Below, one piece after another: positions 27 through 64,000 of a DNA stretch of 64,000 bases. A model generated the notes under the pieces. The model did not search any database and was not told the DNA's origin. It saw nothing but the letters and a program-made list of their open reading frames with translations. Each line of letters starts with the position of its first letter. Position 1 is the first letter of the stretch. Source of the DNA: Faecalibacillus sp. (GTDB lineage Bacteria > Bacillota_I > Bacilli_A > RFN20 > CAG-826). Position numbers and translations under genes: made by a program. Location of the stretch: NCBI GenBank assembly GCA_963588175.1, contig CAVAGP010000004.1:9339-73338 (forward strand), in the 5' to 3' direction.

Positions 27-1025
27 ATAAAGACTCCAATAAACACGTATTTTGATACAAAAAAGTGTATTTGTTGTCGGCAAGATAGACCGCTTGCCGA
101 CTTTTGCCGCACTACCATACCATTCTATAAAGATGGCTACTACCCCGTATGCGGCACCTGTATAGACGAACAATTAAAGACCGAGGATAAATATCCCTGG
201 GATAAACTCGATCATCTCTGTCAGATAATCAATATTCCATGGATTCCGGCGCGCTTCGAAGAAATACACGAGCTAAACGAGTCTAAACCCTTTCTCGTCT
301 ATTCCCAACTATTCGAGAACGATGAATACCGAGGTTTAAACTGGGCGCAATACTACAGTATCTTTAAAGAGCTGGAGGAGAAGAACGTCATCGAAGATGA
401 GCTGCCACGACTAAAGGAAACCCGACATGAGGAACTTATTCAGAAGTGGGGCGGCAACTATGATGACGAAGCTCTAAACTATCTTGAGTCCCTTTATAAT
501 GGACTCCTCTCCACCCAAAACGTCAACGGCGCACTCCAAGGCGACCAAGCTTTAAAGCTATGCAAAATATCATATGAGATTGACTGCCGCATTCGTGAAG
601 GCGTCGACTTCGACAAATACCTTAGCGCCTATGATAAGCTCGTTAAAGTAGCAGGATTCACGCCCAAAAACGCCAAGAACCTAAACGATTTCGATACTAT
701 CGGCGAACTATTGAAGTGGCTTGAAAAAGGAGGGTGGCGCGCTCGTTATTATGACGGGGCCACACGAGATGTAGTAGACGAAACAATGAAGAATATACAG
801 AACCATAATCAACGCCTATATGTGAACGAGACCGGCATCGGTGACGAGATTACTCATCGCCTAGAAAACTTGAAGTCAGCGCAACAACTAGAATCCTACT
901 ATAACACAGATAAAGAGCATGATTTAGAGTCCTATGATAACGATGGCTTCAACGAACTCTTCAAAGATGACGAAGAAGAAGACTTTCAAGGAGGTTTAAA
1001 TTCTAATGAAAAGAAATTTAATTGA
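27..1025 (+). CDS. Zn-ribbon protein, putative terminase small subunit (position-based); start codon uncertain
   Basis: Frame 3 is open from 12 to 1025. The N-terminal region has a CxCC...CxxC pattern (KKCICC...VCGTC). The gene lies immediately upstream of terL and overlaps it. There is no ATG/GTG/TTG in frame before TTG711. The start is placed at ATA27, 9 nt after a perfect AAGGAGG (11-17). Confidence 0.45.
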   Translation: MKTPINTYFDTKKCICCRQDRPLADFCRTTIPFYKDGYYPVCGTCIDEQLKTEDKYPWDKLDHLCQIINIPWIPARFEEIHELNESKPFLVYSQLFENDEYRGLNWAQYYSIFKELEEKNVIEDELPRLKETRHEELIQKWGGNYDDEALNYLESLYNGLLSTQNVNGALQGDQALKLCKISYEIDCRIREGVDFDKYLSAYDKLVKVAGFTPKNAKNLNDFDTIGELLKWLEKGGWRARYYDGATRDVVDETMKNIQNHNQRLYVNETGIGDEITHRLENLKSAQQLESYYNTDKEHDLESYDNDGFNELFKDDEEEDFQGGLNSNEKKFN

Positions 1026-2061
1026 CCCCCATAGAGAACTTACATCTGCCGCCGCCATAAAAAAAGGCGAAAGAGATGGCATAGTGGTAGAAAAATCAGT
1101 CGCTCTTAGTGAAGACTGGGTAGAACGCAATCGAAAGAATCTCGAAAGTATGGCTGATTGGTGGATTGCCTATCCAGACCTATTCCTTGATCTCATCAAA
1201 CCCGCGGATTCCGAATTCGACCTCTTTTTCTATCAGCGTATCTTTTTGCGCGCAGTCATGCGCTACAGAGAAGTATATGTTTGCGCCACTCGCGCATTCA
1301 GTAAGACCTTCATTTCTATATTGGCGGAGTTCCTGCAGTGCGTTTTCATTCCTGGGACTCGTCGCTTTATAGTGGCGCCGCACAAGAACCAGGCGGCCAG
1401 TATAGCCAAGCAAAAGATAGAGGAAATATATCAGCATTGGCCCCTATTGAAGAAAGAGGTTATCGGATGGGAGCTAAACGAGGTCCCCGGCAACTTTGGC
1501 AAAGATTATGTCTCCATCAAGTTCCGCAATGGTTCCTATTTTGACGTTGTTGGTGGCGATGGTGCTCGTGGCCTTCGTAGGCACGGCGGCCTGCTAGATG
1601 AGGTCAGAGACGCCGATGAAATACAAATTCAAGAAGTTATCATACCTCTAATGAACGTATCTCGTCGATTACCTGACGACACCGTTAATCCCAAAGAGCC
1701 CAACCAACAACAAATAATCTGTACTTCTGCGGGGGTCAAATCCTCTTATGCCTATGAACGATTAATAGACTGTTTGGAGAATTCGATCATCGATCCCCAA
1801 AGTTCTTTTGTCTTTGGATGCGACTATCGAGTGCCGGCGATGCATGGATTAATTGATGCCAACTACATAAACAAGTTAAAATCTTCCCCCTCTTACGACG
1901 AGCAAGCATTCGCGCGCGAGTATCTCGGCATTTGGGGAGGTTCAAGCGAAGACTCCTGGTATAATTTTGATAAATTATCAAGGTATAGAAGATTAAAGAA
2001 TCCAGAAATGCGCGCAAAATTTAGACTGGGGAGCAACCAATTCTACTTAATATCGGTGGAT
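1006..2061 (+). CDS. terL: terminase large subunit, exon 1 (ATPase domain)
   Basis: Walker A-like CATRAFSKT, Walker B-like GGLLDEVRD and a TSAG coupling motif are present. Conserved sequence stops at ...FYLISVD, after which the ORF runs into intron sequence (KLDVPLLSD-stop). U2061 within GGAU can pair with guide GUCC at 2071-2074. Confidence 0.8.
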
Positions 2062-3292
2062 AAACTAGATGTCCCTTTACTAAGTGATTAGTAAAGCAAA
2101 TTTTCTTAAACGCGGGAAACGCTTAAAGCTTGATATACTAAAGTAATAACGCCTCATTATTACAATGTTACGAAAGTAGAAACAAATATCAAGATGGTAT
2201 ATGGAGCAATCCTAAGTACTAAAAAGAGCCAATCCGCACCAATTAGGGAGGCACTATGAAAATAGTAACAATAGAAGAAATAACTAATAGAATAGAAGAA
2301 AAGTTCCCAAATGAACCTTTCGAAATTGTTGAATATACTAGAGTTTCTAAGTCTTTTGCTATTAGATGCTTAAAATGTGGAAATACCTATCATTATTCTT
2401 CTTTTAATAATTATTTTAATGCCAAAAGAAAAGGGATATGTCCTTGTTATAATTCAAAAAATAATATCACTAAACATAAGAATACTTTAGAACAAATTCA
2501 AAAAAGGGTTCAAAATAATCCAGAAATTGAATTTATAGAATATTGGCATAATTCTGATACTCAAAAAAATATGGTCTGTGTCAAGTGTTTAAAGTGCGAA
2601 CAAATTTATAGCAAACCTCTTAGTGAATTTTTGAAGAATGACAAATGCCCTTTTTGTATAGGACGAGAGTCATTGAATACTCAAGCAGTAAAAGCTCTAT
2701 TACCGGCTGAATATGAGCTGTTAGATGAGTATAAGTCTACCAATCAAAAAGTTCATGTTAGGCATAAATGCGGTTTTATATGGGCTGTTAAAGTTAAAAC
2801 TTTATATAACTCAGTAGGATGCCCACACTGCAATAAAAAAGAGAGCAAAGGAGAACAAAAAATCACGCAATGGCTATTAAATAATGGTTATGATTTTTAT
2901 ACTGAATACTCCTTTAAATGGCAATCTAATGTTAGGAGACGATACGATTTTTATATTCCAGATTTTAACTTAATTATTGAATATATGGGCGAACAGCACT
3001 ATCATAAAAATTCATATTTTAAACTTCCGTTAGAAGAGCAGCAAAAGATAGATAAAGAAAAAGAATTAGAAGCTGAGCAGCAACACATGAATTATTTAAT
3101 TATTGGTTATTTTGATTATTCTAATATTGATACAATCTTAACTAATTGGTTCAACGACTATCCTGAAAAGGAGTAGACTCAAGCGAGTCGAAATAGAAAA
3201 CATCTTTTTAAGATGATGATATAGTCTTATCTATGTGGAAACATATAGCCGCGAAAGCGCGTATAACTTAGCGAGTTATACGGAAAATAATG
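2062..3292 (+). mobile_element. group I intron 1 (in terL), carrying a homing-endonuclease ORF between Q and R (P6 region)
   Basis: Core elements: P-like AAACGCGGGAAAC 2108-2120, Q AATCCGCACC 2231-2240, R GTTCAACGACTA 3149-3160, S GATGATATAGTC 3215-3226. Three 3' hairpins follow, then ...AAAATAATG with a terminal G at 3292. Removal rejoins terL in frame. Confidence 0.85.
2256..3176 (+). CDS. intron-encoded putative homing endonuclease: repeated zinc ribbons plus a C-terminal Vsr/DUF559-like PD-(D/E)xK nuclease domain
   Basis: RBS GGGAGG lies upstream of ATG2256. Several CxxC...CxxC pairs are present. The C-terminus reads RRYDFYIPDFNLIIEYMGEQHY, the (Y/F)DF...IE(Y/F)xGxQH pattern of Vsr/DUF559-type nucleases. 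The ORF is very AT-rich relative to the flanks, and its 3' end overlaps the R element. Confidence 0.6.
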   Translation: MKIVTIEEITNRIEEKFPNEPFEIVEYTRVSKSFAIRCLKCGNTYHYSSFNNYFNAKRKGICPCYNSKNNITKHKNTLEQIQKRVQNNPEIEFIEYWHNSDTQKNMVCVKCLKCEQIYSKPLSEFLKNDKCPFCIGRESLNTQAVKALLPAEYELLDEYKSTNQKVHVRHKCGFIWAVKVKTLYNSVGCPHCNKKESKGEQKITQWLLNNGYDFYTEYSFKWQSNVRRRYDFYIPDFNLIIEYMGEQHYHKNSYFKLPLEEQQKIDKEKELEAEQQHMNYLIIGYFDYSNIDTILTNWFNDYPEKE

Positions 3293-4030
3293 GTTGGTAG
3301 ATTGCATGACCAGTCCGTAGCAACAATCTTTAAAGTAACAATCTCTAAAGAAGGTCGCTACGTATGCTCAGTAGTAAATATCGAGGTTCTTGGTAAAACA
3401 CCAGAGACTCGTCCCTTTAAAGTCCAAGCACTTGACATTAAAAAATTAATCGACCGCTATAATCCGCGCGAAGTCGTAATAGACTGCAATGGCTTAGGAG
3501 TTGGCTTAGCTGATGAAATGATTCAAGAGCATTGGGATGAAAAAGGAAAATACTATCCACCCTATGGATTCTTCAATAATGACGACTACAAGAAGATCCA
3601 ACCTCCGGATGCGATTTGCATCCTCTACAGCATGAAGGCGAATGGACCTCTAAAATCGAAAATAAACAGCAATGCTTATAATCGATCTACTAATGGTTCC
3701 GTTCGATTTCTAATAAAGGAGCAAGAGGCCAAAAGTGCCTTGCTCGCCACTAAAGAAGGTCAAAAAATGAAGCTACCAGACCGTGTACAGCGACTGATGC
3801 CTCATGAAATGACCACTAAACTTTTTGATGAAATGGCTAACCTACGATTAAAGAAGACGGGGACGTTAGATGTTGTTCTCGAGCCAATCAATACTCGGTA
3901 TCCAGACGATAAGTATTATTCGTATGCTTACGGACTGTATCGGATAAAGGAATTGGAGGAGGAGAATAGCAAAAAGCATCGCCGCAGAAATAACGGTCCT
4001 AGGAAGCTTATTTTCTATTCAGGAGGATAA
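3293..4030 (+). CDS. terL: terminase large subunit, exon 2 (nuclease domain)
   Basis: The join gives ...YLISVD|VGRLHDQSVATIFKV..., the typical first catalytic-Asp strand of the terminase RNase H-like nuclease. It is in frame with exon 1 (352 + 245 aa). Confidence 0.8.
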   Translation, partial: VGRLHDQSVATIFKVTISKEGRYVCSVVNIEVLGKTPETRPFKVQALDIKKLIDRYNPREVVIDCNGLGVGLADEMIQEHWDEKGKYYPPYGFFNNDDYKKIQPPDAICILYSMKANGPLKSKINSNAYNRSTNGSVRFLIKEQEAKSALLATKEGQKMKLPDRVQRLMPHEMTTKLFDEMANLRLKKTGTLDVVLEPINTRYPDDKYYSYAYGLYRIKELEEENSKKHRRRNNGPRKLIFYSGG

Positions 4031-5553
4031 TGATGGAAGAAAGCAAAGATATTGCACAAGAAAAGAAAGTAATTACAGAAGCTACTAATCCGGCCGCCGG
4101 CGGTCCTGCCACCTTCAAGAAGATGACAGACAGCATGATCGGTGTTAGCGAAACTGCATATCAGAAGTATGCGCACTATTTGCGGCGGTCTGATGTAAGA
4201 GAATATTCTAAGCAAGATGTAGCCAACATCATTAACTATGGCACAGTTGAAGCTCAAAGAAAATTATCTCAGGACTATTTCTTTAGCAATGGTTTATACA
4301 GATCTCTCGTATTATATTACGCCACCCTGCTTAAATATACCGGCATTCTAATTCCTAATCCAAAGTTAGGCCACAATCTCTCCGAAAAAAAGATTGCTAA
4401 GCGTTATTTTGAAGCAGAAGACGTTCTCAATAAAATGAATCTGCCACAGGTCTTCCCTGACATTGCAGTTAGAGTATTTAGAGATGGTGCATATTATGGT
4501 GCAATCCGCACTTTAGATAAAGATAATTTTTCCTACGTAGATTTGCCGACCAACTATTGTATTTCTCGATACAAAGATTCAAAAGGCAACTACATTGTCG
4601 AATTTAATTTGGCTTTCTTTGACCATATTAGCAATGGAGAAGAGCGCGCAAACGCTTTTCGTGGCTATCCGAAACTCTTTAAGCGTGCTTATGATAAGTG
4701 GAAAAAGAAGGACGGCGCGCAATGGATATTCCTTCCTACAGATATTGGCTTCTGTTTTAACGTTTTCGAAGACGCGAGACCTATGCTTTTGAGCGTTATC
4801 CCTACTACTATTGATTATGACGACGCAGTAGAAACAGAGCAAGAACGCGATGCAGAAGAAATAAAGAAGATTATCGTTCAGAAAGTTCCTCACATCGCCA
4901 CAACAGGTGAATTAGTATTTGAGCCGGATGAGGCAGAAGAAATGCACCGTGGCGCAGTAAAGATGATGGATGCCAATCCTAATGTTAGCGTTCTTACTAC
5001 TTATGCCGATGTAGACTCCATTGTTTCTAAAACTGCGAATGATTCGTCAACTAACATCCTTGAAGTTATGCTAGAGGCCGTTTACAGCGACAGTTCCGTA
5101 AGTGGCCAATTACTTGGCTATCAGACGGGCGCGCAGTTAGAAAAAGCGATCAACACAAATATCGCGACAGTTATGTTACTGGCGCGCAAGTTTGCGAGAT
5201 TTGCTGAAAATGTGATAAACCGCATATATAGTAGTAGCAATCTTTCTTTTAGTTATGAGATACTTCCAATCTCATACCAAAACGATGATGATTATCTTAC
5301 CAAGGCTCTTCAAATGGCGAATAGTGGCTATTCGTTCTTGCTGCCGGCAGCGGCGATGGATCTTTCTCCTCGCAACTTGCGCGACATCAAAGATCTTGAA
5401 AACACGCTTCTCGAACTAACCGATAAGTTGATTCCGCTCCAGACCTCTTATACCCAGTCGGGCGCTGAGAGCAATGGAGAAGTCGGCGCACCTAAAAAAG
5501 ATGTCGACGATAAAGCCGAAAAAACTATTCAAAATGAAGAATCGCAAGGATGA
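4030..5553 (+). CDS. portal protein (position and size based)
   Basis: A 507-aa ORF overlaps the terL stop and has an RBS (AGGAGG). This is the canonical position between terminase and scaffold/capsid. Confidence 0.6.
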   Translation: MMEESKDIAQEKKVITEATNPAAGGPATFKKMTDSMIGVSETAYQKYAHYLRRSDVREYSKQDVANIINYGTVEAQRKLSQDYFFSNGLYRSLVLYYATLLKYTGILIPNPKLGHNLSEKKIAKRYFEAEDVLNKMNLPQVFPDIAVRVFRDGAYYGAIRTLDKDNFSYVDLPTNYCISRYKDSKGNYIVEFNLAFFDHISNGEERANAFRGYPKLFKRAYDKWKKKDGAQWIFLPTDIGFCFNVFEDARPMLLSVIPTTIDYDDAVETEQERDAEEIKKIIVQKVPHIATTGELVFEPDEAEEMHRGAVKMMDANPNVSVLTTYADVDSIVSKTANDSSTNILEVMLEAVYSDSSVSGQLLGYQTGAQLEKAINTNIATVMLLARKFARFAENVINRIYSSSNLSFSYEILPISYQNDDDYLTKALQMANSGYSFLLPAAAMDLSPRNLRDIKDLENTLLELTDKLIPLQTSYTQSGAESNGEVGAPKKDVDDKAEKTIQNEESQG

Positions 5554-5573
5554 TAATCTAGGGAGGCTCCGAA

Positions 5574-9258: not shown

Positions 9259-9903
9259 ATGGGTACATCTTTTGAGGTTGTATATGATGCTTTCCTTTCA
9301 AAAATATTAGAAGATGAGTGGGGGGACTGGACCATTGATGAAATGGAGCTAGACTTGCGCATGATTATGGAGGCCGCAATTCCGTGGTTTAAATTTCCTA
9401 GAACCCCCCTTACTAGAACAGATAGTGGATTTGACAATGAACTGTCTAATGAGATTGTTCAAATCATTGCCAATTACATGGTATATGAATGGGCGCAGCG
9501 CAGTATATTAACTTGGGAAAATATTAAAGCGAATTATACCGAGAGAGATTTCTCTCAGGCTAATTTACTGGATAAGTTAAATGCGACCGCAGATGTTGCG
9601 AAGAAGAAGGCTAAAAATCTTGAAGCAATGTACTATCGCTCTAGAGACGGTCGTCCTTATGCCTATCGGAATTTGGCGTCGCAGACTACTAACTTTACTT
9701 CTTTGTCGCCGACAGCCCTCTTTAAGGAGAGTGATCCTACTGTATCTGATTGGGCAAAGGCAGAAAAGAAGCCTAGTTATACCGCCGATGAGGTAGGCGC
9801 CGCATCTAAAAGTGATCTTTTGGCTTACGCTACTTCAGACTTTGTGACTGAGTCTATTAAAAAAGCACTCGCAGATCTTGATGCTAGCGAGGTGAACTAC
9901 TGA
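9259..9903 (+). CDS. putative head-tail adaptor/connector protein
   Basis: A 214-aa ORF with an RBS (AGGAGG). The N-terminus (FEVVYDAFLSKILEDEW...) resembles gp6/gp15-type adaptors, and the position fits. Confidence 0.4.
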   Translation: MGTSFEVVYDAFLSKILEDEWGDWTIDEMELDLRMIMEAAIPWFKFPRTPLTRTDSGFDNELSNEIVQIIANYMVYEWAQRSILTWENIKANYTERDFSQANLLDKLNATADVAKKKAKNLEAMYYRSRDGRPYAYRNLASQTTNFTSLSPTALFKESDPTVSDWAKAEKKPSYTADEVGAASKSDLLAYATSDFVTESIKKALADLDASEVNY

Positions 9904-11501
9904 TGAGTAAAAAGTTATATGAAGAAGATCAGGTTTCTGCTATCGCGAATGCCATACGAGAAAAAAATGGCGCTGAAACTACTTATAAGGTTTCTGAAAT
10001 GGCGCAAGCAATTTTAGAATTATCTAGCGAGCAAACAAAAAATAACGTTTTTACATATAATGAAGAGCAGATTTGTGAATTTAACGATAAATGCCAAACT
10101 CAGATAAGATATGCTAAGTCTAATTATGAAGAAAGTATATATCCGACGATCGAAGACTGGTTAAAAGACGAATCTTTGATTGTTCACAGCGGAGATGAAA
10201 TCGATACTTCAAAAAATTTTTCTGCGATGACAGTTTGGAGCAATGATTATCAATATGCTGCGATGGCTTGTCTTTCTGTTAACTTAAATGGAGAGTTTTT
10301 AACTGATACTTTTACTATCATAACGACAGAAGAATTTATTTATTCTATCTCTGAGGACTTTAAATTAAATAAAAATGAAGGAATGGTCGTTGATATTATT
10401 TATACCCCAGACTATACTTCTTTAATTTTTCCAATGACCACTTACAGAACAGACTTATATGATAACTGCAATGACAGCTCGAGCATGGACGCTAGAGCAG
10501 TTTCAAGTTTTGGAAAACTTATTTATGATAATAAAACCAAAAAAGTAAAAAACCCCTCTACTAATCCAGTAACCCTATTTTTAGACGATTATGGGAGACT
10601 TCATGAATATTCATTAAAATACATTTCTATGCTGCAAAGATTAATGCCTGAGTTGGACTGGTCAAAGTGGGATATAACACAATCCGAATTGTTTTCTAAA
10701 CTTTTGCCGTGTTTTGTTCCCGAAGAATTTATCAAAATTGTTGAAAATTTGAGTAATTCTATCGATGGGAGAGTTACTATTTCACATAATATATCAGAAT
10801 ATGTAGACAATAAGCCAATTCCTTTTTACATAAGAGAAGGATCTGGAGCATTCTACTCGACGGGGTCGTCTAATCTTTCAAATGACAGCATCGAAGTAGA
10901 CACTTATAATTATTTAACTCAGCCTTCTTTTTTGATGTTTATGTTACCGATGAATGACGACAATGGCTGGTCGAAAGATTACCTTAAAAAATTACAGGAG
11001 GATGAAGAAAAAGTTGAACAAGTATTTCTTAAAATGTATGCTGTGTGCTCTAAATTAGCGAAAGTAGAAGCTGTAAGATATTTATGCGCAGAACCATACG
11101 ACGTATCAGAGCAAGGACTAATGTATTCTTGTCAATTTCGTCTCGGGTGGGCAACGCCAAGTTATGCTACCAAAATGAAAGAGATAAGTTGGTGGACTTG
11201 GGAGGAATTTAATCACTACGATTATATCAACAAATATTATCTTCCAAAAGATGCTCACGAAACTGATTCTTGCATGAGGTACTACAGTGGCTCAAGAGAA
11301 GATGATCAATTTCATCTCTGTTTCGGATCCTCAGTGGGCACCACAGATAATTATAATACGAAGGAAGACAAGTATTTTATCGTTGTTCCGGTTACTTTCG
11401 TAGAAGTGAGCGGTAAGATTTACTATTCTGAAGGAGGTTTTATTCCACCCTTCTTTGAAGCTCCTTTTACTCTGCCGCCTAATTTGAGAATAGGAGGATA
11501 A
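9903..11501 (+). CDS. hypothetical protein, 532 aa
   Basis: A long uninterrupted ORF whose start overlaps the upstream stop (ATGA). It is noticeably AT-rich. No motif was recognised. Confidence 0.5.
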   Translation: MSKKLYEEDQVSAIANAIREKNGAETTYKVSEMAQAILELSSEQTKNNVFTYNEEQICEFNDKCQTQIRYAKSNYEESIYPTIEDWLKDESLIVHSGDEIDTSKNFSAMTVWSNDYQYAAMACLSVNLNGEFLTDTFTIITTEEFIYSISEDFKLNKNEGMVVDIIYTPDYTSLIFPMTTYRTDLYDNCNDSSSMDARAVSSFGKLIYDNKTKKVKNPSTNPVTLFLDDYGRLHEYSLKYISMLQRLMPELDWSKWDITQSELFSKLLPCFVPEEFIKIVENLSNSIDGRVTISHNISEYVDNKPIPFYIREGSGAFYSTGSSNLSNDSIEVDTYNYLTQPSFLMFMLPMNDDNGWSKDYLKKLQEDEEKVEQVFLKMYAVCSKLAKVEAVRYLCAEPYDVSEQGLMYSCQFRLGWATPSYATKMKEISWWTWEEFNHYDYINKYYLPKDAHETDSCMRYYSGSREDDQFHLCFGSSVGTTDNYNTKEDKYFIVVPVTFVEVSGKIYYSEGGFIPPFFEAPFTLPPNLRIGG

Positions 11502-13780: not shown

Positions 13781-13789
13781 ATGAATATT
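13781..13789 (+). CDS. major tail (tube) protein, exon 1 (9 nt: ATG AAT ATT)
   Basis: An excellent RBS (GCAGGAGG) lies 7 nt upstream of ATG13781. The apparent ORF dies after 13 codons. AUAUU at 13785-13789 can pair with GGUAU at 13802-13806 (P1). The boundary could also be after U13786. Confidence 0.55.
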
Positions 13790-15017
13790 TTAAGTAGATA
13801 CGGTATAGAAATGCCGCGATAGGAAGAAATTCCTATTGATAATCTCGTGAATTGCTGGGAACTCCTAAAGCTAATCAAACTACAACATAAGAAGTAATTC
13901 TAAGTGTGATAGTTTAAAAATTGATTAGATGGTAAATAAGAGGTTTTAAAATGGACAATCAGCAGCTAAGCATCAATTCTGAAATTTATTATTGTAAACC
14001 TAAACTCGGATATGGATTTATTTATAGATACACTTCTCCTTCTGGTAAAGAGTATATAGGCCAGACATCCGGAACGCTGAAGAAAAGAGCTAAAAATCTC
14101 ATCTCTGGAGATGGATATAAGAAATGTTCTCTTTTTTGGAAGGCAATACGGAAATATGGTTTTTTAAACTTGAAAGTGGAAATACTAGAAGAGGTTCCTC
14201 TTAGTGAGTTAAATAAGAAGGAAGAGTTTTATATTCAAAAATTTGATACACTCGCCCCAAAAGGCTATAACTTAACGGGAGGAGGGGAAGGGGGAAAAAA
14301 GAAAGACGTCTATGTCTATTCTGCGCAAACAGGATGTTTTCTTGAACATTATTCTAGTTTAACAGAGGCTTCTTTGTTCACAGAAGTTCCTGTTGAAACG
14401 ATTAGCGTAATAATGAATCAGAATCATCGAAAGCAATCTCATAATCTAATATTTCTTGACAATTACTTGGAAAGTTATGATATTTCTAAATTAGCGAAAA
14501 AGAATTTTACTAGAGTTTATGTTTATGATAAGGAAGGGTTTTATCTTAATTACTATGATAAGATTACCGAAGCGGCGAAAAATTTAAAGATTAGTGACAG
14601 TTCAATTTGGAACGTTCTAACCGGAAGATCTCTCCATGCAGCTTCTTATCAGTTTAGTAGGGAAAAAGTAGATAAAATGCCACCTCTTCCTCGGAATAGC
14701 CGTTCTCCAATTTCTGTCTGTCAGATTGACCCAAAATCAGGAGAAGAGATTCAGAAGTTCCCTTCCCTCAGTGAAGCTGCGCGAGCGGTCGGAATAGTTA
14801 ATGGAAATAATATCAAAAGAGTGGCCACATCTGGAAAAGGGACAAGTGGAGGGTATTTTTGGAGAATTGATGAAAGTTCAACGACTAAGAGCGGACAAAA
14901 CCCCAGTCCGACTGTGCGAGACTCCCATTAAGGGATGAAGATATAGTCTAATCTTATGTGAAAATATAAGCAGCGCCTAAAAAGCGCGGGCAATTTGGGA
15001 AATTGCCGAATATAATG
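13790..15017 (+). mobile_element. group I intron 2 (tail-tube gene) with a GIY-YIG homing-endonuclease ORF in the P6 region
   Basis: Core elements: P GAATTGCTGGGAACTCC 13849-13865, Q AATCAGCAGC 13957-13966, R GTTCAACGACTAAG 14876-14889, S GATGAAGATATAGTC 14934-14948. Three hairpins follow, then ...AATATAATG ending at G15017. Confidence 0.85.
13951..14931 (+). CDS. GIY-YIG homing endonuclease (I-TevI-like), intron-encoded
   Basis: The N-terminus GYGFIYRYTSPSGKEYIGQT...R...H... plus YNLTGGGEG is the GIY-YIG module. Repeated C-terminal helix-turn-helix-like modules (SLTEA..., ITEAAKNLKISDSSIWNVL, SLSEAARAVGI...) are present. The start overlaps Q and the 3' end overlaps R. Confidence 0.85.
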   Translation: MDNQQLSINSEIYYCKPKLGYGFIYRYTSPSGKEYIGQTSGTLKKRAKNLISGDGYKKCSLFWKAIRKYGFLNLKVEILEEVPLSELNKKEEFYIQKFDTLAPKGYNLTGGGEGGKKKDVYVYSAQTGCFLEHYSSLTEASLFTEVPVETISVIMNQNHRKQSHNLIFLDNYLESYDISKLAKKNFTRVYVYDKEGFYLNYYDKITEAAKNLKISDSSIWNVLTGRSLHAASYQFSREKVDKMPPLPRNSRSPISVCQIDPKSGEEIQKFPSLSEAARAVGIVNGNNIKRVATSGKGTSGGYFWRIDESSTTKSGQNPSPTVRDSH

Positions 15018-16466: not shown

Positions 16467-16503
16467 ACTTACGCAAGATCTGAAACAACTGGTAAAGATG
16501 AGT
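16467..16503 (+). CDS. major tail (tube) protein, exon 3 (37-nt micro-exon, TYARSETTGKDE + 1 nt)
   Basis: This is the only open frame between introns 3 and 4. GAGU at 16500-16503 pairs with guide AGCUC at 16515-19, with the U-G pair at the junction. Phase 1 is completed exactly by the two leading T residues of exon 4. Confidence 0.6.
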
Positions 16504-16823: not shown

Positions 16824-16996
16824 TTTTCCAGTTTGTTATTCCGAAGGCCAAGGTACTGTCCGAAGTTACCCTTACCATGGAAGCAGAAGGCGATCCTTCT
16901 ACTTTCTCCATGAACCTGAAGGTGCTTCGTCCGGCCGACAAGCAGATGATGAAACTTATCAAATATACTGTACCGGAAACCGCTATCGGCGGCTAA
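16824..16996 (+). CDS. major tail (tube) protein, exon 4
   Basis: The join reads ...GKDE-F-FQFVIPKAKVLSEVTLTMEAEGDPSTFSMNLKVL.... The four exons total 744 nt, giving 247 aa in one frame. A strong terminator follows. Confidence 0.7.
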
Positions 16997-48285: not shown

Positions 48286-49242
48286 TTACATCACTCCACT
48301 AGAACCAAAACCACCGGCACCCCTTTCTGTTTCAGTTAATTTATCTACTTTCTTAAAGCCAACTAAAGGTACTTGAACGAGTCGCATCTGTGCAAATCTC
48401 ATACCTTTATCAATTGTATAGGAACTACCATAGAGAATGGAGTTTTTTTCCAAACCTGAATCATCTTTTTTAAAGAGGATGTCTTTGATTGGAGGATCGA
48501 TGTTTTCGACGATAACGCCGATTTCTCCTCGGAACGAGGAGTCGATGAGACCGGGGGTGTTGGCAATGCGTAATTTCGTTTTTGCGCAAAGTCCGCTTCT
48601 TCCCTGAATCAATAAGGCGTATCCTTCAGGAATTTCACACTTAAATCCAAGAGGAATAATCTTTTGTTCTCCTGGCCCAATAGTAACTTTTTCTGGACTA
48701 TAAAGGTCCATTGCAGCATCTCCAAGATGTGCATAGGTCGGCAAAATAGCCGTATCGCTACAAATTTCAATAGGAATAGTGACCGTTCTTTGATTGACAA
48801 CTGCCGCCTCTCCAATCGCGTTCATAGCAATAATACAAGCCTGTTTAATAAAGTCTCGTTTAGCTTGAGATGGAATAATTTCGGCCATATCGTCTTCGTC
48901 AAGAGCTTCGATAATTTTGTCAAATACTTCTACTAAATCTTTATAGCTATAATTATTTGATTCCATGTACTTTACAACTTGCATCGCGGCGCCGGACGCA
49001 AGATACTCTTGTTGAAAGCTACCCAGTACAACTGGCGCAATAACAGAAAAGGATTCATCGCTCAAACTAAGGAGAGAACCAACACGTTGAAGGTCTTCTG
49101 TCTGAAGAAGCTCTTCACCATCTTCATCGGTAAACAATTCATCAAGAAGAGTCATGACAGAGTCACTAACTTTTTCTTCCCCCTCAAGCATTCCTAAAAG
49201 TTCTTTAACGCCGCCAGTTACTTTTTCATTAATTTCGTCCAT
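48286..49242 (-). CDS. dut: dUTPase with a ~165-aa N-terminal extension
   Basis: Trimeric dUTPase motifs: GDAAMDL, GRSGL, GLIDSSFRGEIGVIV and C-terminal ERGAGGFGSSG. Confidence 0.85.
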   Translation of the reverse strand: MDEINEKVTGGVKELLGMLEGEEKVSDSVMTLLDELFTDEDGEELLQTEDLQRVGSLLSLSDESFSVIAPVVLGSFQQEYLASGAAMQVVKYMESNNYSYKDLVEVFDKIIEALDEDDMAEIIPSQAKRDFIKQACIIAMNAIGEAAVVNQRTVTIPIEICSDTAILPTYAHLGDAAMDLYSPEKVTIGPGEQKIIPLGFKCEIPEGYALLIQGRSGLCAKTKLRIANTPGLIDSSFRGEIGVIVENIDPPIKDILFKKDDSGLEKNSILYGSSYTIDKGMRFAQMRLVQVPLVGFKKVDKLTETERGAGGFGSSGVM

Positions 49243-50147: not shown

Positions 50148-50638
50148 TAAAAATCTTTACCTCTATACAGTATTTTTTGATTAGAGCTCCCTCTCCATTT
50201 AAGAGTTAAGTCTCTTTTCTCTCTGATGTAACGTCCTTCAATAAGCACGTCAGTATTGGAGAGAATAGAATCGAGAATTGAGTTAGACTGGCGGCGAACT
50301 GTTAATTCTTCTATTGTATATCCGCTCCAAAGATAAACTTTTATTTGAGGATAGACCTCTCGAATAGACAAAATTATATCATTAACTAATCTTAAATTTT
50401 CGTTGCATAGTGGTTCTCCGCCTAATACAGAGAATCCTCTTTGGACGTCGTTGGCATCAATTGCCTCTATTAACCGCTCTTTTATATCAGATGGAACTTC
50501 GAAGCCACCACTGAAATCCCAAGTTTGAGGATTGTGACATCCAGGACACCTATGCGGACATCCTTGAGTCCAAAAAGAAACGCATACTCCTTCTCCATCT
50601 ACAATGTCGTTGTATTTTATTCCTGCATATCTATTCAT
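50147..50638 (-). CDS. nrdG: anaerobic ribonucleotide reductase activating protein (radical SAM)
   Basis: NDIVDGEGVCVSFWTQGCPHRCPGCHNPQTW is the NrdG CxxxCxxC cluster context. The gene overlaps nrdD by 8 nt. Confidence 0.85.
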   Translation of the reverse strand: MNRYAGIKYNDIVDGEGVCVSFWTQGCPHRCPGCHNPQTWDFSGGFEVPSDIKERLIEAIDANDVQRGFSVLGGEPLCNENLRLVNDIILSIREVYPQIKVYLWSGYTIEELTVRRQSNSILDSILSNTDVLIEGRYIREKRDLTLKWRGSSNQKILYRGKDF

Positions 50639-52118
50639 CTAAATGTATTACCCTATCCTTTATTTCTTGTGTTCTTCCATAGTTCCAAAAATTAGTGCCT
50701 AGGTAGCCGCACGTGCGACGAGCTACATTTAATTTTGAGTGGTCGCGGCATCCGCAATTTGGACAGTACCATTCCATATTCTCGTCGATTCTAATTTCTC
50801 CGTCATAACCGCATTTTTGACAGTAGTCACTCTTAATATTGAGTTCGGCATACATGATATTGTTGTAGATAAAACGAATAATTTCAAGAACGGCGGGGAT
50901 ATTGTCTGTCATATTGGGGCATTCAATATAACTTATTGCACCACCCGGAGAGAGCTGTTGAAACTTAGATTCAATAGCTAATTTGGAAAAAGCATCGATT
51001 TTCTTAAATACCGGCACATGGTAACTGTTGGTGATGTAATTGCGGTCTACACCATCAAGTTTGGCGAATACGTCATCTCCAAATCTCTCTTTTAAACTTT
51101 TTGCAAATTTATAAGTTGTCGATTCAATTGGAGAGCCATAAACAGAATAATCTATATCTTCTGCGACCTTCCACCGTTGGCATTTATCATTTAATGCTTG
51201 TATGACTTCAAGACCGAACTTTTCACCTTCGGCGCCGTCTGTATGCGAATGGCTTGTCATATATTTGACGCACTCGTACAATCCGGCATAACCGAGAGAG
51301 GCAGTTGCATATCCGTGGTGGATAAGCTCCTTTATTGATTCGTGCTTGTTCAGCCGCGCAAATGCTCCGTCTTGCCAAAGGATTGGAGCCACATCTGATG
51401 TTACTTTTTCTAATCGGTCTATGCGAACCCGCAAACCTTTGTGGCATAGCTCGGTCCGCTCTTCAAATAGTTTCCAGAATAAATCGAAATCTCCTTTCGA
51501 AGAGAATGCAATATCTGGAAGATTAATTGTGGTCACTCCAACGTTAAACCGTCCATAATATTTACCCTGTCCTTCTTTGTAATTTAAAGCACGGGCATAG
51601 TTTTTGGTCGTCCGATCTGGAGTAAGGAAGCTTCTACATCCCATACAGGCATAGCATTCCCCAATTCCTGTTGTTGGATTAATTTTCAAAGACTTCATAA
51701 TCTTTTCAGAAATATAATCCGGCACCATTCTTTTAGCGGTACATTCTGCCGCGAGCTGTGTTAAATAATAATATGGTGCTCCTTTATTAATGTTATTTTC
51801 TTCAAGGACATAGAGAAGCTTAGGGAATGCCTGAGTTACATATACTCCTACTTCATTTTTCATTCCTTGAATCCGTTGTCGAAGAAATTCTTCGATCAAC
51901 ATCGCTAATTCTTGTCGATATTCTTCTGTCTCATTAAGGTACATAAACACGGAGACAAAGGGTGCTTGACCATTGGTTGTTGACATAGAATTAATCTGAT
52001 AATTAAAAGTTTGTACTGCATCTCGAATTTCTTTGCGAATATCTCGATTAGCAAAGTCTCTCGCATGGGGCTCATCAATTCCCCAGTCTTTATATTTGCT
52101 TAGATATTCGTTGTAGCT
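50631..52118 (-). CDS. nrdD: anaerobic (class III) ribonucleotide reductase, exon 2
   Basis: C-terminal Zn site CQKCG...CPNCG and glycyl-radical motif RRTCGYLG. The exon begins immediately after the intron terminal ...AGAATG. Confidence 0.85.
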   Translation of the reverse strand, partial: SYNEYLSKYKDWGIDEPHARDFANRDIRKEIRDAVQTFNYQINSMSTTNGQAPFVSVFMYLNETEEYRQELAMLIEEFLRQRIQGMKNEVGVYVTQAFPKLLYVLEENNINKGAPYYYLTQLAAECTAKRMVPDYISEKIMKSLKINPTTGIGECYACMGCRSFLTPDRTTKNYARALNYKEGQGKYYGRFNVGVTTINLPDIAFSSKGDFDLFWKLFEERTELCHKGLRVRIDRLEKVTSDVAPILWQDGAFARLNKHESIKELIHHGYATASLGYAGLYECVKYMTSHSHTDGAEGEKFGLEVIQALNDKCQRWKVAEDIDYSVYGSPIESTTYKFAKSLKERFGDDVFAKLDGVDRNYITNSYHVPVFKKIDAFSKLAIESKFQQLSPGGAISYIECPNMTDNIPAVLEIIRFIYNNIMYAELNIKSDYCQKCGYDGEIRIDENMEWYCPNCGCRDHSKLNVARRTCGYLGTNFWNYGRTQEIKDRVIHLDE

Positions 52119-53172
52119 CATTCTAACATAAGGAGCTAAATGGGTAAGAGAGATGCTACAACCCTTATCCCAATATCTTTCGAAATTGGACTGACTATAT
52201 CTTCACTCCATTTGGAGGTCTCCCGTTTGGCTTTCGCTACGTTAAAACTAGTCGATGAACGTTCTTTGCTTATTTTGATTAAAATTCTGAGAAACATATG
52301 ACCAATCCATTTCTCTTCTTTGTATATTTTCTTTATGTGTTATCATTTGTAAATTATTAAGGGCATTGTTTTCTGGATTCCCGTCAATATGGTCTATTTC
52401 ATATCCTTCTTTGATAGAACCATTAAAAGCCTCCCAAACTGCTCGATGGACTAGGAAGTGCTTCCCATTTAAATTATAATAGCCCGTAAAACGTCTATAA
52501 GAACCGCTTTTCTCTGGTCTAATTTCAGTTTTTTTGCTGATATTAACAATTTTCCCATCTTCAGTGGCATAATAAGGCGATTTTCTAAATTGAGCCATTT
52601 TCCCGTATTGAGATAAATCTTCGATGTATATTCGAGGTTTATATTCTTTTGGTTTATCTTTCCCTTGCTCATTGATTGTTTTTTGATGCTCCTTGGTAGA
52701 TACCCACATCAAATTAGTAAAAATATTGTTTGTTTTATCTCCATCAATATGATGGACAATCGGCAGATTATCTGGATTTGGAATAAAATACTCTGCTACC
52801 GCCCTATGTGTATATAGAATATATTGCTTTCCTCTAAAATAAAGAGAATAGAAATGATATCCTTTGTTATACCCGCCTTTTAGCCATCTTTTTGTTTTTT
52901 CATTCCTTAATCGACCAGTATCTTCTATCCAAAAATCAGACTCTTGCCCATTGAGAAGAACTCTTTTTTCCAAAGTGTTCAACTCCTTTCTATTTTATTT
53001 TTTTTTATTCTGGTCATATTTATTTAATCTAAGCAAAGCTTCGCTGCTGATTGCCCAATCCATAGTGTTTTTTATAGCATTCACGTCTAAGTTTCCTTTG
53101 CGTTGTAGCAACTATGGCTCTAAGGGGTTCCCAGCAATTAGAGAGATTTTAGTACAGCAGTTGTTAATTTTT
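52119..53172 (-). mobile_element. group I intron 7 (in nrdD) with an HNH homing-endonuclease ORF
   Basis: On the - strand: P TAATTGCTGGGAACCCC (53140-53124), Q AATCAGCAGC (53052-53043), R GTTCATCGACTAG (52260-52248), S GTGAAGATATAGTC (52206-52193). An 8-bp P1 forms between exon AGUACGGU and guide GCUGUACU (53158-53151). Confidence 0.85.
52248..52982 (-). CDS. HNH homing endonuclease (NUMOD4-like plus two HNH modules), intron-encoded; paralog of 21029-21856
   Basis: Motifs THRAVAEYFIPNPDNLPIVHHIDGDKTNNIFTNLMWVSTKEH and a second VHRAVWEAF...IDHIDGNPENNALNNLQMITHKEN. The stop overlaps R. Confidence 0.85.
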   Translation of the reverse strand: MNTLEKRVLLNGQESDFWIEDTGRLRNEKTKRWLKGGYNKGYHFYSLYFRGKQYILYTHRAVAEYFIPNPDNLPIVHHIDGDKTNNIFTNLMWVSTKEHQKTINEQGKDKPKEYKPRIYIEDLSQYGKMAQFRKSPYYATEDGKIVNISKKTEIRPEKSGSYRRFTGYYNLNGKHFLVHRAVWEAFNGSIKEGYEIDHIDGNPENNALNNLQMITHKENIQRREMDWSYVSQNFNQNKQRTFID

Positions 53173-53829
53173 ACCGTACTGCGAACTGGCGACGGCAGTA
53201 ATAATTTGTGTTGTAACTGTAGTCGCAGTCGACAATCTATGCTGTGGATCAATACTAACGCCATTGATTACAGTTCCATTTTGAAGCATATCTTCGAGAT
53301 TAATTAAGCAACAGTTCGAAAGAGCATTCTGCGCAAGATAATCCATATCATGCTCGTGTATGATACCTTGATCATGTGCTTCACAAATTTCTTTCGGCAA
53401 TATTTTTCTTCGACTAATGTCTGTACTTACAATGCCGGCTAAATAATCTCGCTGTACAGTAACAATATCAGCGTCTTTGTTGGAGTTTTCGGTACTCCAA
53501 TATTCGTTAGCGCCTTGCAATAGCTCGATAACGGTAGAGTCTGTAGTATTGCCGCGCGCCTGAGAGCGACGATCTCGATATCGAATATAGGCTTTTGCTA
53601 CTTCTTTACACTGATATTCGATCAGCTTATCTTCTACAAGGTCTTGAATCTCTTCAACGTCATAAGCCAAAGAAGAATTCCCTTCAATTTCAATTTCCTC
53701 GGCTATCTGTTCTGCGACATCTAAATCGACATCATTAACTTCTTCCATGGCCTTGCGAATTGCTTCAACAATTTTATTCTTGTCAAAGCTAACTACTAAA
53801 CCATCTCTTTTAACAATCGTTGTTATCAC
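53173..53829 (-). CDS. nrdD: anaerobic ribonucleotide reductase, exon 1 (ATP-cone plus N-terminal part)
   Basis: The N-terminal ATP-cone-like sequence is IVKRDGLVVSFDKNKIVEAIRKAMEE. The exon ends in the conserved ...QIITAVASSQYG. The ORF tail KN-stop is intron sequence. The spliced length is 714 aa. Confidence 0.85.
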
Positions 53830-61228: not shown

Positions 61229-61235
61229 TGTCCTT

Positions 61236-62282
61236 TTATCTTACTCTTACTCTCTTCTTTAGAAGAGACAAAAATACTTCTTCTCCTTTGTCGAAAGGCG
61301 AATCTTTTAATTTTAATTGGTTATTTCTATCAAAAATAAAGCTAAAGTTGCTATAGTTATCATACTTTTTGCACAAATTATATAGCTTGTTGAAGTAGCG
61401 ACCGCCAGTGTTATCTTCTTTGTCGAAGCAAATGATGATTTCTTTTGGCTGACACTCTTGCATTAATAGGTTTAGCGTCCATTTGCTAAAATTAGAACCG
61501 CATACTGCAACCGTGCAGTTTGGAGAAGAAAAAGATTCTGCTTGGAGAACTGACTTCTCTCCTTCTGCTAGATAAACAACTCCCTTCTCTTTTATATTAC
61601 TCTTATTTTCGTATAAACCATACAAATTCATACCAAGAGGATGGCTATACCATTGTTGATTTACTCTAATTGGCATATACTTACCGACATTCTCTACTTC
61701 CCACTCATCTAGCGCGCGGCCTCGAATGCCGACTAATAAACCTTCCGTATTTCTATGTGGAATAATAATTTTATTTTGAGTAACCGAGTAAAGTATATCA
61801 AATTTGTCCATTGCGGCCGGTGTGATTCCATCTTCCAACCATTCTGGGGGGTAGAATTTTTCAAAGCTCTCAAGAACTCTATCTGAGTAGGTTGGAAGTT
61901 CTATGGCTTCTCTCTTTCTTTGATAGTCTTCTTTTATACTTCTATATTTCTTGGGTGCAAACCCTTTCTTGGAATAATTAGAACAATCAAGGACAACATT
62001 ATAAATATCTTCAACCCAATTATAATCAATATCTCTGGCTTCATAATAGTGCTTTAAAAACTTAAATATGGACATTGTCTGACAAGAACTGTAACAAACA
62101 AAAACTTTTGTATTCTTGTAGAAATATAATTTCCACGAAGCTTCGTCAACATCTGCATGATGACAAGCTGTCTTACATATGAGATATTGTCCCTTGTCTT
62201 GGTAGGGAACTTCGAGCCTATCAAGTAAGTCCTTTACTCTGTCATCATTAAGTTCCTTAATAATTTCCTGATAATCAATCAT
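61236..62282 (-). CDS. DNA primase (zinc finger plus Toprim)
   Basis: CKTACHH...CYSSC resembles a CHC2-type finger. Toprim-like motifs are YLAEGEKSVLQ and ICFDKED. The gene is adjacent to the helicase. Confidence 0.65.
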   Translation of the reverse strand: MIDYQEIIKELNDDRVKDLLDRLEVPYQDKGQYLICKTACHHADVDEASWKLYFYKNTKVFVCYSSCQTMSIFKFLKHYYEARDIDYNWVEDIYNVVLDCSNYSKKGFAPKKYRSIKEDYQRKREAIELPTYSDRVLESFEKFYPPEWLEDGITPAAMDKFDILYSVTQNKIIIPHRNTEGLLVGIRGRALDEWEVENVGKYMPIRVNQQWYSHPLGMNLYGLYENKSNIKEKGVVYLAEGEKSVLQAESFSSPNCTVAVCGSNFSKWTLNLLMQECQPKEIIICFDKEDNTGGRYFNKLYNLCKKYDNYSNFSFIFDRNNQLKLKDSPFDKGEEVFLSLLKKRVRVR

Positions 62283-63171
62283 GGCTATTCAACCCTTCCA
62301 CAATTTGGTTTAAACTTTTAAATTCTTCATCTTCAAAATTTAGGACTCGCGCAGATGTATACAGGTGAAAATCTTGAAGGGCATTTAGATTTGCATCCGT
62401 AATAAACAGGTCTCTTCTCTTCATTGTTCCTAAATTCATATAGCTCCAGATCTTGACTTGTGTCCACTGGCCAGACCGGACTTTGAACACGTCAGATACA
62501 AGATTTGGTTCTGGCAATCCTTTTGATTCAATAAGTGGCCGCAAAAGGTCTGTTTCATCTTTTGTTGGACGAGACATAATAAGACCATTGTCACTTTTGT
62601 TAATAATCGAGCGGGCGCCGGCAATAGAACCTTCATTTCGTATACCAATATTGTTATCGGCGTTCGCATTGACTTGAGTAGATGTAAATACACATATATT
62701 TAGCTCAACTGCTAAATCCTTTAACGCCGTTGACAATAATAGAAGTGCTTCATCGTTCCGCAAATGAAAATCCTTAAACTCTCGCAGCAAGGAGGGAGAA
62801 ACAAAAATGTAGTCCATAAACAGATAACCAATATCCTTTAATACGTATTGCTCTCTTACCATGGCTTTGAGCCCCTCTACCGTGGGTTCTGGCATTCGCA
62901 AAATAGTCAAATTATCTTTGAACTGTTTTATCAATTTTATCGATTGGAACAGAATGTCATTTTCTTCAGAACTGAAATCTCCATATCTAAAACGTCCTTC
63001 ATTAATATCAGATATATAAGCGAGAATCATCTTTTGAACTTCTTCAAAGCTTTGCTCTGTGATAATGAGCAAAACCTTCTCATTGTATCCGTCTATTATC
63101 CATTTTCCAGTCGAACTATCATAACGAATGGGATAAGCTAAGTGACAGGCATCGGCGACGGCGCCGCGGGT
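62275..63171 (-). CDS. DnaB-like replicative helicase, C-extein portion
   Basis: After intein ...GYIVTHN the sequence resumes TRGAVADACHLA..., a continuation of the P-loop helix. It continues with DnaB-like ...LMDYI... (Walker B-like) and DEALLLLSTALKDLAVELNICVFTSTQVN. Confidence 0.7.
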   Translation of the reverse strand, partial: TRGAVADACHLAYPIRYDSSTGKWIIDGYNEKVLLIITEQSFEEVQKMILAYISDINEGRFRYGDFSSEENDILFQSIKLIKQFKDNLTILRMPEPTVEGLKAMVREQYVLKDIGYLFMDYIFVSPSLLREFKDFHLRNDEALLLLSTALKDLAVELNICVFTSTQVNANADNNIGIRNEGSIAGARSIINKSDNGLIMSRPTKDETDLLRPLIESKGLPEPNLVSDVFKVRSGQWTQVKIWSYMNLGTMKRRDLFITDANLNALQDFHLYTSARVLNFEDEEFKSLNQIVEGLNSHD

Positions 63172-64000
63172 ATTATGTGTCACGATATACCCCTCTGTCA
63201 GAAAGAGGTGCTCTTCATTGTCAACATAAAAACAAGTCATTTCTTCCTCATATCCTAGAGAACCTAGTTCAATAATCGGAATAAAATCATTTTTTTCTTT
63301 ACGCTTGCTGGTATCATACCAGTCTTGCATTCTTTTTCTTTTTCTTGGCAGTTTAAATAATTTATTTTTATCAGAAGGGCGACCTTTTATATGAACGACA
63401 TATCCGATATTTGTCTCTTTATGACTGTCTATCGCGACGGTAGCAGAGAATCCGAGGCTCCGACACAGTTCAACGACACCGTCTTTAAGCTGAGAACTGG
63501 TAGTAAAGAAGCTAACTCTTCCTTTCTCATCAACAGATCCATCGCTGTCTAGTAGTCCATTTAAAAGATCAAAACGCTGCTCAATGTCTCCGCAAAGATA
63601 TTTTTCTGGGATAAATTTATCTTCAGATTTGCAATTTATTAATTGAGGATATTCAATTAAAAAATCTTGAACCCAAATATTTTCTTTTCTTTCTTGGGTG
63701 TTCTTCTTGGTGGAAAAGTGCCAAGTGTAGTTCTTTTTACTGTTCTTTTTTAAATTCCAATCCATTTCTTTTGCGATTAAAGAGGGAAGATATTCATCTT
63801 CGCTAGAGTATTGAAATGCTTTGTTAGACTCGTGCTGTCGAAAAGAACTATCTCCTAAAGCCAATCCAAAGACGTAAGGAGGAATAAAATAATCTTTTTT
63901 TGAATATTGAACGGCATAAGAGTTGGGAACTAAAATCTGATACGCTCCTTTTTCATTTTGTAAGTGTAATTTATTGATTTCCTTAAAGGTTTTTGTATAA
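63172..64000 (-). mobile_element. intein with a LAGLIDADG homing-endonuclease domain inside the helicase gene (5' part beyond the window)
   Basis: The reading frame is open to the window edge. The LAGLIDADG-type block is FDLLNGLLDSDGSV. The C-terminal splicing block EHLFLTEGYIVTHN is followed by Thr (+1). Confidence 0.75.

Follow-up and report, generated by a model that had tools for sequence, protein, structure and literature searches.

A 64-kb stretch of the contig CAVAGP010000004.1 (assembly GCA_963588175.1, positions 9,339–73,338), hereafter the window, raises the question of whether the genes for the terminase large subunit (terL), the tail tube protein, the tape measure protein (TMP) and the anaerobic ribonucleotide reductase (nrdD) of a phage are split there by self-splicing introns. 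An initial annotation had placed one group I intron in terL, three in the tube gene, two in the TMP gene and one in nrdD, together with an intein in a DnaB-like helicase. Our computational analysis confirmed that seven group I introns interrupt these four genes at the predicted loci. The window very probably represents an uncultured siphovirus, distantly related to SPbeta, in which four essential genes are split by seven IA-type group I introns and the helicase by an intein with a class 3 signature. From the sequence, we infer that the introns splice, that the endonucleases they encode are active and that the elements home.

The Rfam covariance model for group I introns, RF00028 (gathering threshold 50 bits), was scanned against both strands of the window, corresponding to 128 kb searched. 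Three matches exceeded the gathering score, namely 19324–19621 in TMP intron 1 (88.6 bits, E = 2.8e-21), 16492–16778 in tube intron 3 (72.9 bits, E = 1.4e-16) and 16268–16440 in tube intron 2 (50.6 bits, E = 6.8e-10), the latter accompanied by a second match at 15533–15806 (37.2 bits). The best matches at the other loci were 3087–3248 in the terL intron (34.9 bits, E = 3.4e-5), 21823–21973 in TMP intron 2 (30.8 bits, E = 5.6e-4; also 20872–21014, 17 bits), 14496–14970 in tube intron 1 (30.7 bits, E = 6.1e-4; also 13795–14079, 18.1 bits) and 52171–52361 in the nrdD intron (28.4 bits, E = 3e-3; also 52992–53136, 21.4 bits). At E ≤ 10, the scan returned 11 matches, all within the seven loci and on the coding strand of the interrupted gene, with none elsewhere on either strand. 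A regular expression describing the R to S part of the core (CAWCGACYA, 40–90 nt, GAKATRGTC) likewise matched exactly the seven loci, and it matched nothing in 100 shuffles of the window. No tRNA genes were found in the window.

Helix strands were picked by eye, and their presence, pairing and canonical order were then verified by script. The core elements P, Q, R and S, reported in the initial annotation as readable at every locus, were recovered together with helices P1, P3, P4, P7, P8 and P9 in canonical order in all seven introns; P2 could be placed in five of them and a P6 stem in six. P4 (TGCKGG/TCMGCA, with CGCGGG in terL) and P7 (GACYA/TRGTC) were found in every element, and P7 of TMP intron 1 shows a compensatory two-sided change, GACCA/TGGTC versus GACTA/TAGTC in the others. 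Perfect P6 stems flank the open reading frame (ORF) in the introns of terL (8 bp) and nrdD (8 bp), in tube intron 1 (10 bp) and in TMP intron 2 (12 bp), and 4-bp hairpin stems occupy P6 in the ORF-less tube intron 3 and in TMP intron 1, the ORF of which follows P9. The P3 strands lie up to ~1.1 kb apart, with complementary sequences that differ in each of the seven introns. Distinct strand sequences numbered six or seven for P1, P3, P6, P8 and P9, and five for P2. Pairing reached 98–100% with a strand's own partner, compared with 41–62% with swapped partners from other introns. What carries weight is that every element has complementary segments in the right positions, with sequences that differ between introns. 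Hairpins between P7 and the 3' strand of P3 (P7.1/P7.2), read in the terL intron and in tube introns 1, 2 and 3, speak for subgroup IA, to which phage introns usually belong; the other three introns also contain sequence at this place.

In all seven cases, the upstream exon ends in U, which pairs with G in a P1 of 4–8 bp, and the intron ends in G. Following the established chemistry of the group I family, each intron RNA would fold into its P3–P9 core, and an external guanosine would attack the bond after the last U of the exon, at the U·G pair of P1. The freed exon would then attack the bond after the terminal G of the intron, and this ligation would restore the mRNAs for TerL, the tail tube protein, the TMP and NrdD. 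Similarity between introns was confined to the core and peaked at 68% identity over 252 nt (tube introns 1 and 3), and intron ORF pairs were 24–33% identical or without detectable similarity; the introns are therefore not recent intragenomic copies of each other. Of note, the exon sequence TACGGT precedes both tube intron 1 (13799–13804) and the nrdD intron (53178–53173, minus strand), and four introns (terL and tube introns 1–3) end in AATG. Both common guide-sequence ancestry and chance could account for these shared sequences.

Removal of the elements was expected from the initial annotation to rejoin ORF fragments in frame and to restore conserved proteins. This was borne out, as the spliced products aligned unbroken to intact homologues or Pfam models, with uninterrupted TerL, tube and tape measure homologues each aligned as a single high-scoring segment pair (HSP). 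The junctions of terL, the tube gene, TMP intron 2 and nrdD were fixed by protein alignment. Unless noted otherwise, features lie on the plus strand. Exon 1 of terL (1006–2061), which matches the terminase large subunit families phrog_2 and phrog_9, ends in YLISVD and is followed by an intron of 1,231 nt (2062–3292), with P1 formed by GGAT/GTCC and the U·G pair at 2061. In this intron, a P2 of 9 bp was verified along with P3, P4, P7, P8 and P9. Exon 2 (3293–4030) starts with VGRLHDQS, which gives the in-frame junction YLISVD/VGRLHD. The spliced TerL of 597 aa forms one HSP with that of Geobacillus virus E3 (aa 40–581, E = 3e-123) and also aligns to many other intact terminases.

The nrdD gene lies on the minus strand, with exon 1 at 53173–53829 (Pfam ATP-cone plus NRDD positions 1–104), an intron of 1,009 nt at 52164–53172 and exon 2 at 50631–52163. 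P1 comprises 8 bp (AGTACGGT/GCTGTACT), and the junction reads SSQYG/GCSISL. Before splicing, the Pfam NRDD model matched in two pieces (positions 1–104 and 128–562), whereas the spliced protein of 729 aa matched in one stretch (positions 1–562, 596 bits).

The TMP gene comprises three exons. Exon 1 (17886–19358; phrog_991, tape measure protein) is followed by intron 1, of 1,013 nt (19359–20371; P1 CCGT/GCGG), exon 2 (20372–20842; tape measure PHROGs, within the Pfam PhageMin_Tail match), intron 2, of 1,141 nt (20843–21983; P1 AGATAT/GTATCT), and exon 3 (21984–28022). Once spliced, the fragment covers PhageMin_Tail positions 2–201 in one stretch, and the spliced segment forms one HSP with intact proteins annotated as tape measure. 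The complete spliced protein would span ~2,660 aa.

The tube gene (gene A) was reconstructed with reference to an intact, intron-less homologue of 245 aa, encoded at positions 4828–5565 of the related gut-metagenome contig L004 and bearing a precomputed YomU_Tube hit. Exon 1 spans only 24 nt (13781–13804) and encodes MNILSRYG. It is followed by intron 1 (1,213 nt, 13805–15017), exon 2 (15018–15542; phrog_2729, and Pfam YomU_Tube by a precomputed hit to this ORF in contig L001) and intron 2 (924 nt, 15543–16466; P1 GGAGAT/GTCTCC), the junction of which, GD/TYAR, agrees with the intact homologue. Exon 3 is a mini-exon of 37 nt (16467–16503), which encodes TYARSETTGKDE plus one base and aligns to TYARNRNTGKDE of the homologue; intron 3 (320 nt, 16504–16823) and exon 4 (16824–16996) follow, the latter in unbroken alignment with the homologue. 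Placing the 3' splice site of intron 3 after 16823 closed a four-residue gap and, by that change alone, raised the alignment score from 224 to 231 bits, and all the revised tube junctions together gave 241 bits. The spliced protein of 252 aa matches the homologue over residues 2–247 with 51% identity, free of gaps at every junction, and forms a single HSP with tube proteins of Bacillus phages and of the Lactococcus 949 group, among them one annotated as "tail tube protein". The same homologue ruled out three other placements, namely a 5' site of intron 1 after 13789 (P1 ATATT/GGTAT, exon 2 from 15009), a 3' site of intron 2 that would start exon 3 at 16455 and insert VIEM, and a 3' site of intron 3 at 16811. 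Skipping of the mini-exon between introns 2 and 3 would shift the reading frame. Exon skipping is documented for the three-intron gene of Staphylococcus phage Twort.

The ORF at 17052–17837 had been taken for a fragment of the split tube gene but is a complete, uninterrupted tandem paralogue (paralogue B), which covers positions 4–240 of 252 in phrog_2729. The tandem pair also occurs in L004 (4828–6487), with introns in the first copy only in the window and in neither copy of L004. Between the paralogues, just after gene A, a GC-rich hairpin with a T run (GGTGGGTGGCGGCTTCGTCACCCACTTTTT, 16976–17035) has the appearance of an intrinsic terminator. When the first 20 kb were compared by megablast with 50,697 phage records, no close cultured relative emerged, and the only match was to 42 nt from the P5 region of tube intron 1 (13879–13920), which are 95% identical to bajarodcaudo virus 1 (PQ006092.1, 24255–24296). 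There, the sequence is annotated within a hypothetical protein, and that phage probably has an unannotated related intron.

Six of the introns encode a putative nuclease, and the three families assigned in the initial annotation were recovered, with two members each. Every ORF is full length and has its own Shine-Dalgarno sequence; five sit at P6 and run into the downstream core, the exception being that of TMP intron 1. The GIY-YIG ORFs of tube intron 1 (13951–14931, 326 aa) and tube intron 2 (15649–16362, 237 aa) matched TIGR01453, "group I intron endonuclease", with 85.8 and 66.5 bits, respectively (cutoff 56.05 bits). Both contain NUMOD1, and the former also an I-HmuI_NUMOD-like domain. 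Their motifs are readable as FIY…YIG (YGFIY…EYIGQT) in the first and YIY…YIG in the second. A PDB sequence search with a GIY-YIG ORF yielded no match to I-TevI, and the isolated catalytic domain gave a weak Pfam match to SegE_GIY-YIG (E = 0.007). The HNH ORFs matched Pfam HNH_3 (cutoff 24.8 bits). That of TMP intron 2 (21029–21856; 63 bits, E = 2e-17; also NUMOD4) starts at ATG 21029 after an AAAGGAG site, within a longest ORF from 20966. That of the nrdD intron (52248–52982, minus strand, 244 aa; 94.6 bits, E = 2.7e-27) also matched I-HmuI (PDB 1U3E, E = 4e-10).

The third family comprises the zinc-ribbon ORFs of the terL intron (2256–3176, 306 aa) and TMP intron 1 (19635–20345, 236 aa), which are 24% identical. 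The first displays tandem zinc ribbons and matches Pfam DUF723, phrog_559 (E = 1.4e-42), phrog_9084 ("homing endonuclease") and phrog_7140 ("intron encoded nuclease"), and the second matches DUF723, DUF4379 and phrog_559 (E = 1e-45). In the latter, residues D169, E180 and Q185 are invariant and H186 is also conserved. The AlphaFold2 model of this ORF (pLDDT 90) suggests a Vsr-like fold for the C-terminal domain, since the top Foldseek matches were the Escherichia coli Vsr entries 1cw0 and 1vsr (probabilities 1.0 and 0.99; target-normalised TM scores 0.43 and 0.42), followed by other PD-(D/E)xK nucleases. The isolated catalytic domain gave a weak Pfam match to DUF559 (E = 0.09). A PDB sequence search with the ORF returned nothing useful, and a profile built from 31 homologues retrieved only zinc-ribbon proteins of the mitoribosome, with no I-Bth0305I chain among the matches listed at E ≤ 10. 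Assignment to the EDxHD family of I-Bth0305I was rejected, as the motif is absent and the N-terminus consists of zinc ribbons rather than NUMOD/HTH (helix-turn-helix) domains. The likeness to I-Bth0305I (PMC3239194) is that of a nuclease encoded in an intron, with a catalytic domain at the C-terminus that is putatively Vsr-like here; the difference lies in NUMOD/HTH plus EDxHD there and, here, tandem zinc ribbons (DUF723/DUF4379) as the DNA-binding part plus D…E….QH. ORFs of phrog_559 with a CATH VSR signature were reported in 2025 inside terL introns of Bastillevirinae (PMC11878797).

Several points weigh against this account of the introns and their nucleases. Four of the seven loci (terL, tube intron 1, TMP intron 2 and nrdD) remained below the Rfam gathering score, at 28–35 bits and E values from 3e-5 to 3e-3. 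The near-perfect pairing of strands with their own partners is partly by construction, as the strands were chosen by eye, and the P6 stem of tube intron 2 was not identified when the element was read. For the 3' end of TMP intron 1, two in-frame positions one codon apart, 20371 and 20374, are both possible, and homologues are only ~28% identical there; this intron site is also occupied in L004. The Vsr-like fold has a Foldseek E value of only 0.03. The sub-threshold Rfam scores, together with the metagenomic origin of the contig, which puts the viability of the phage in question, could be taken to mean that some elements are decayed, non-splicing remnants and their host genes pseudogenes in a defective or decaying phage. 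We consider this very unlikely. Every exon frame is open with conserved junction residues, all the core helices are intact, including the long-range P3 across ~0.8–1.1 kb, none of the six nuclease ORFs is truncated or lacks a ribosome-binding site, and each of the four interrupted genes encodes a protein that is either essential or highly conserved (TerL, tube protein, TMP, NrdD). For the low scores there is a separate explanation, as an ORF of 0.7–1 kb splits the ribozyme at these four loci and is penalised by the model, which is the expected outcome for such introns (PMC11878797). At the sub-threshold loci, splicing competence is accordingly what we infer, whereas the placement of group I cores at all seven is an observation.

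A second alternative concerns tube intron 1 only, which would lie outside the coding sequence if the gene started at ATG 15015 or TTG 15003, with the element in the untranslated region ahead of the start codon. In favour of this, the shortness of exon 1 permits many in-frame joins, and the PHROG match to the tube protein begins only at residues encoded from ~15009. Yet ATG 13781 is preceded by a strong AGGAGG ribosome-binding site, whereas 15015 has no such site, and P1 (CGGT/GCCG) puts the U·G pair at 13804. Moreover, MNILSRYG corresponds to MANLLEQYG, the N-terminus of the L004 homologue, and the spliced sequence continues as YG/IKEVADV exactly as in that protein. An untranslated position is thus scarcely probable, and intron 1 is best read as interrupting the tube gene after its eighth codon.

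The LAGLIDADG intein reported in the DnaB-like helicase was upheld as to its identity, with Pfam Hom_end and LAGLIDADG_3 above their cutoffs, but only its C-terminal 277 residues (83–359 of 359) lie inside the window (63172–64000, minus strand). The C-extein (62275–63171, minus strand) matches Pfam DnaB_C. The N-terminal junction is found 248 nt beyond base 64000, which leaves the N-terminal 82 residues outside the window. A full helicase gene encoding 880 aa was obtained from contig L090, from the same genome and sample, with the intein at L090:1917–2993. This intein of 359 aa contains two LAGLIDADG motifs and would interrupt the helicase at the protein level within the Walker A loop, at junctions GSGVGK/ALPNST and VTHN/T; its removal restores the Walker A motif GSGVGK/T. 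Class 3 inteins, which mostly sit in the P-loop of a helicase, are defined by the lack of Cys, Ser or Thr at position 1, by a Trp in block B, a Cys in block F and a Thr in block G, and by Ser or Thr at +1 (PMC2807308). The putative intein here has Ala1, the WCT triplet in CEEHLW, MTCFYVD and VTHN, Thr at +1 and a Walker A insertion, and it therefore bears a class 3 signature, which the initial annotation had not mentioned. It shares the absent N-terminal nucleophile, WCT, Thr +1 and the helicase P-loop with the class 3 prototype, the DnaB intein of mycobacteriophage Bethlehem (PMC2807308), and differs in carrying a LAGLIDADG endonuclease domain, in its unrelated phage lineage and in that its splicing is predicted.

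Chimeric joining of intron-bearing fragments from different phages, conceivable for a metagenomic source in which shared intron cores could mislead assemblers, has a negligible probability, since the arrangement recurs in independent Logan contigs from the same and other sequencing runs, three in all (terL intron, tube intron 1, the TMP segment of intron 1, exon 2 and intron 2, and the helicase intein), L090 shows 0 mismatches over 2,868 nt, and the introns, at most 68% identical, are too divergent for assembly collapse.

Precomputed Pfam hits on the source contig, which spans 92.9 kb, include YonD_N, YonB, YomW and YomU_Tube, as well as Sipho_tail and Prophage_tail. They indicate a siphovirus distantly related to SPbeta and the Lactococcus 949 group. 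In IMG/VR, at least 147 stretches encode a related capsid protein, with contigs reaching ~127 kb; the 80 loci retained are 59–65% identical, and relatives reach about 110–127 kb. Among 28 relatives with the full segment from terL to the tube gene, 0–4 core signatures were found in each, with none in 16 of the 28. L004 lacks all three tube introns, and its occupied TMP intron 1 site contains an ORF 67% identical to that of the window. Two further RF00028 matches (27 and 57 bits) are found in its TMP gene (L004:9700–11700), at positions other than that of TMP intron 2 of the window, and they possibly flank another mini-exon. Such varying occupancy among relatives is as expected for homing elements. 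The homing endonucleases would cut intron-less alleles in co-infecting relatives, and repair would copy the intron in, which would explain the differing occupancy between related phages. The capsid-gene relatives L087, L088 and L089 sit in metagenome-assembled genomes of Muribaculaceae, Bacteroidaceae and Erysipelothrix, assignments that disagree and, despite the SPbeta/949-like structural genes of the clade, are too inconsistent to name a host.

Two other genes of the window deserve mention. An ORF of 532 aa in the structural module (9903–11501) has a GC content of 0.33, versus ~0.40 otherwise, and no Pfam match; it may be a recent acquisition. A dUTPase ORF of 318 aa (48286–49242, minus strand) has its domain from residue 165 onwards, preceded by an unexplained N-terminal extension of 164 aa.

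The set had been put forward as unusually dense and diverse, against a benchmark of one to five introns per phage genome. That benchmark is out of date, as crAss-like Zeta genomes contain up to 14 introns and three inteins (PMC7886860), and in Jug phages, where terL and nrdD are split, the genomes have a mean of 18.5 group I introns (PMC12880540). Nor is the mix of nuclease families unusual, given that Jug phages encode the same one (HNH, PDDEXK_5, GIY-YIG and LAGLIDADG). These systems resemble the present one in their many introns plus inteins, split terL and nrdD, mixed nucleases and metagenome-assembled origin. They differ in that they are crAss-like and jumbo phages infecting Bacteroidota, whereas the window derives from an SPbeta/949-like siphovirus (YonB, YomU, Sipho_tail) with the standard genetic code. 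Its seven introns sum to 6,851 nt, or 10.7% of the window. Locally there is one intron per 9 kb, a density that equals or exceeds that of those phages but is known for this window only.

Tail genes had also been considered rarely reported intron hosts, for which there are several precedents. The tube gene of phage Twort, orf142, is likewise split by three phage IA-type introns with short internal exons. The Twort introns are small and not known to carry ORFs, whereas two of the three tube introns here carry GIY-YIG ORFs; furthermore, Twort is a myovirus with a tube protein from another sequence family than the YomU type. That orf142 encodes a tail tube protein and contains three group I introns is credited to Landthaler and Shub (1999) by PMC11878797. 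Prophages of the Bacillus cereus group have group I introns at three positions of their tape measure genes (IVS1–3; Tourasse and Kolsto 2008, PMC2504315), which parallels the several introns at different positions in one tape measure gene observed here, in another phage lineage. Capsid and tail gene introns were described for Cluster J mycobacteriophages and Tuc2009 (PMC3706429).

Introns in terL are known in LL-H and Moonbeam. Bastillevirinae such as Moonbeam share IA-type ribozymes split by nuclease ORFs and phrog_559 in a terL intron, but their introns, at most six per genome, are found only in genes of DNA and nucleotide metabolism and in terminase genes (PMC11878797), whereas five of the seven here are in tail genes. 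The nrdD gene is the phage ribonucleotide reductase gene most often split, including that of Lactococcus phage 949 (PMC3653736), and a group I intron in nrdD is also shared with phage T4 (sunY). The 949 group is related to the present phage through its tube and TerL proteins; its nrdD intron is non-coding (PMC3653736), whereas that of the window carries an I-HmuI-like HNH ORF. Every component of the intron and intein set thus has a precedent, and exceptional rarity is not supported by the literature.

Our understanding of intron or intein function is unchanged by this finding. A broader reading can be envisaged, in which a large undescribed clade of SPbeta/949-like gut siphoviruses uses the tube and TMP genes as recurrent landing sites with fast intron turnover, the zinc-ribbon/Vsr-like ORFs are homing endonucleases of a type other than I-Bth0305I and not yet characterised biochemically, and splicing of the three tube and two TMP introns is not neutral but serves to time tail assembly or control its quality. 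As a whole, we regard this combination as doubtful. More immediate is the value for annotation: terL, the tube gene, the TMP gene and nrdD appear in annotations as separate pieces interspersed with "hypothetical" ORFs, here and in many relatives from public metagenomes, and with the precise junctions the actual proteins can be reassembled. The window and L004 provide matched intron-plus and intron-minus alleles, which would ease homing assays of the GIY-YIG and zinc-ribbon/Vsr-like nucleases. The phage provides a second tail tube gene with three introns, beside that of Twort, and brings a siphovirus lineage of the Firmicutes type into the small group of phages known to be intron-dense.

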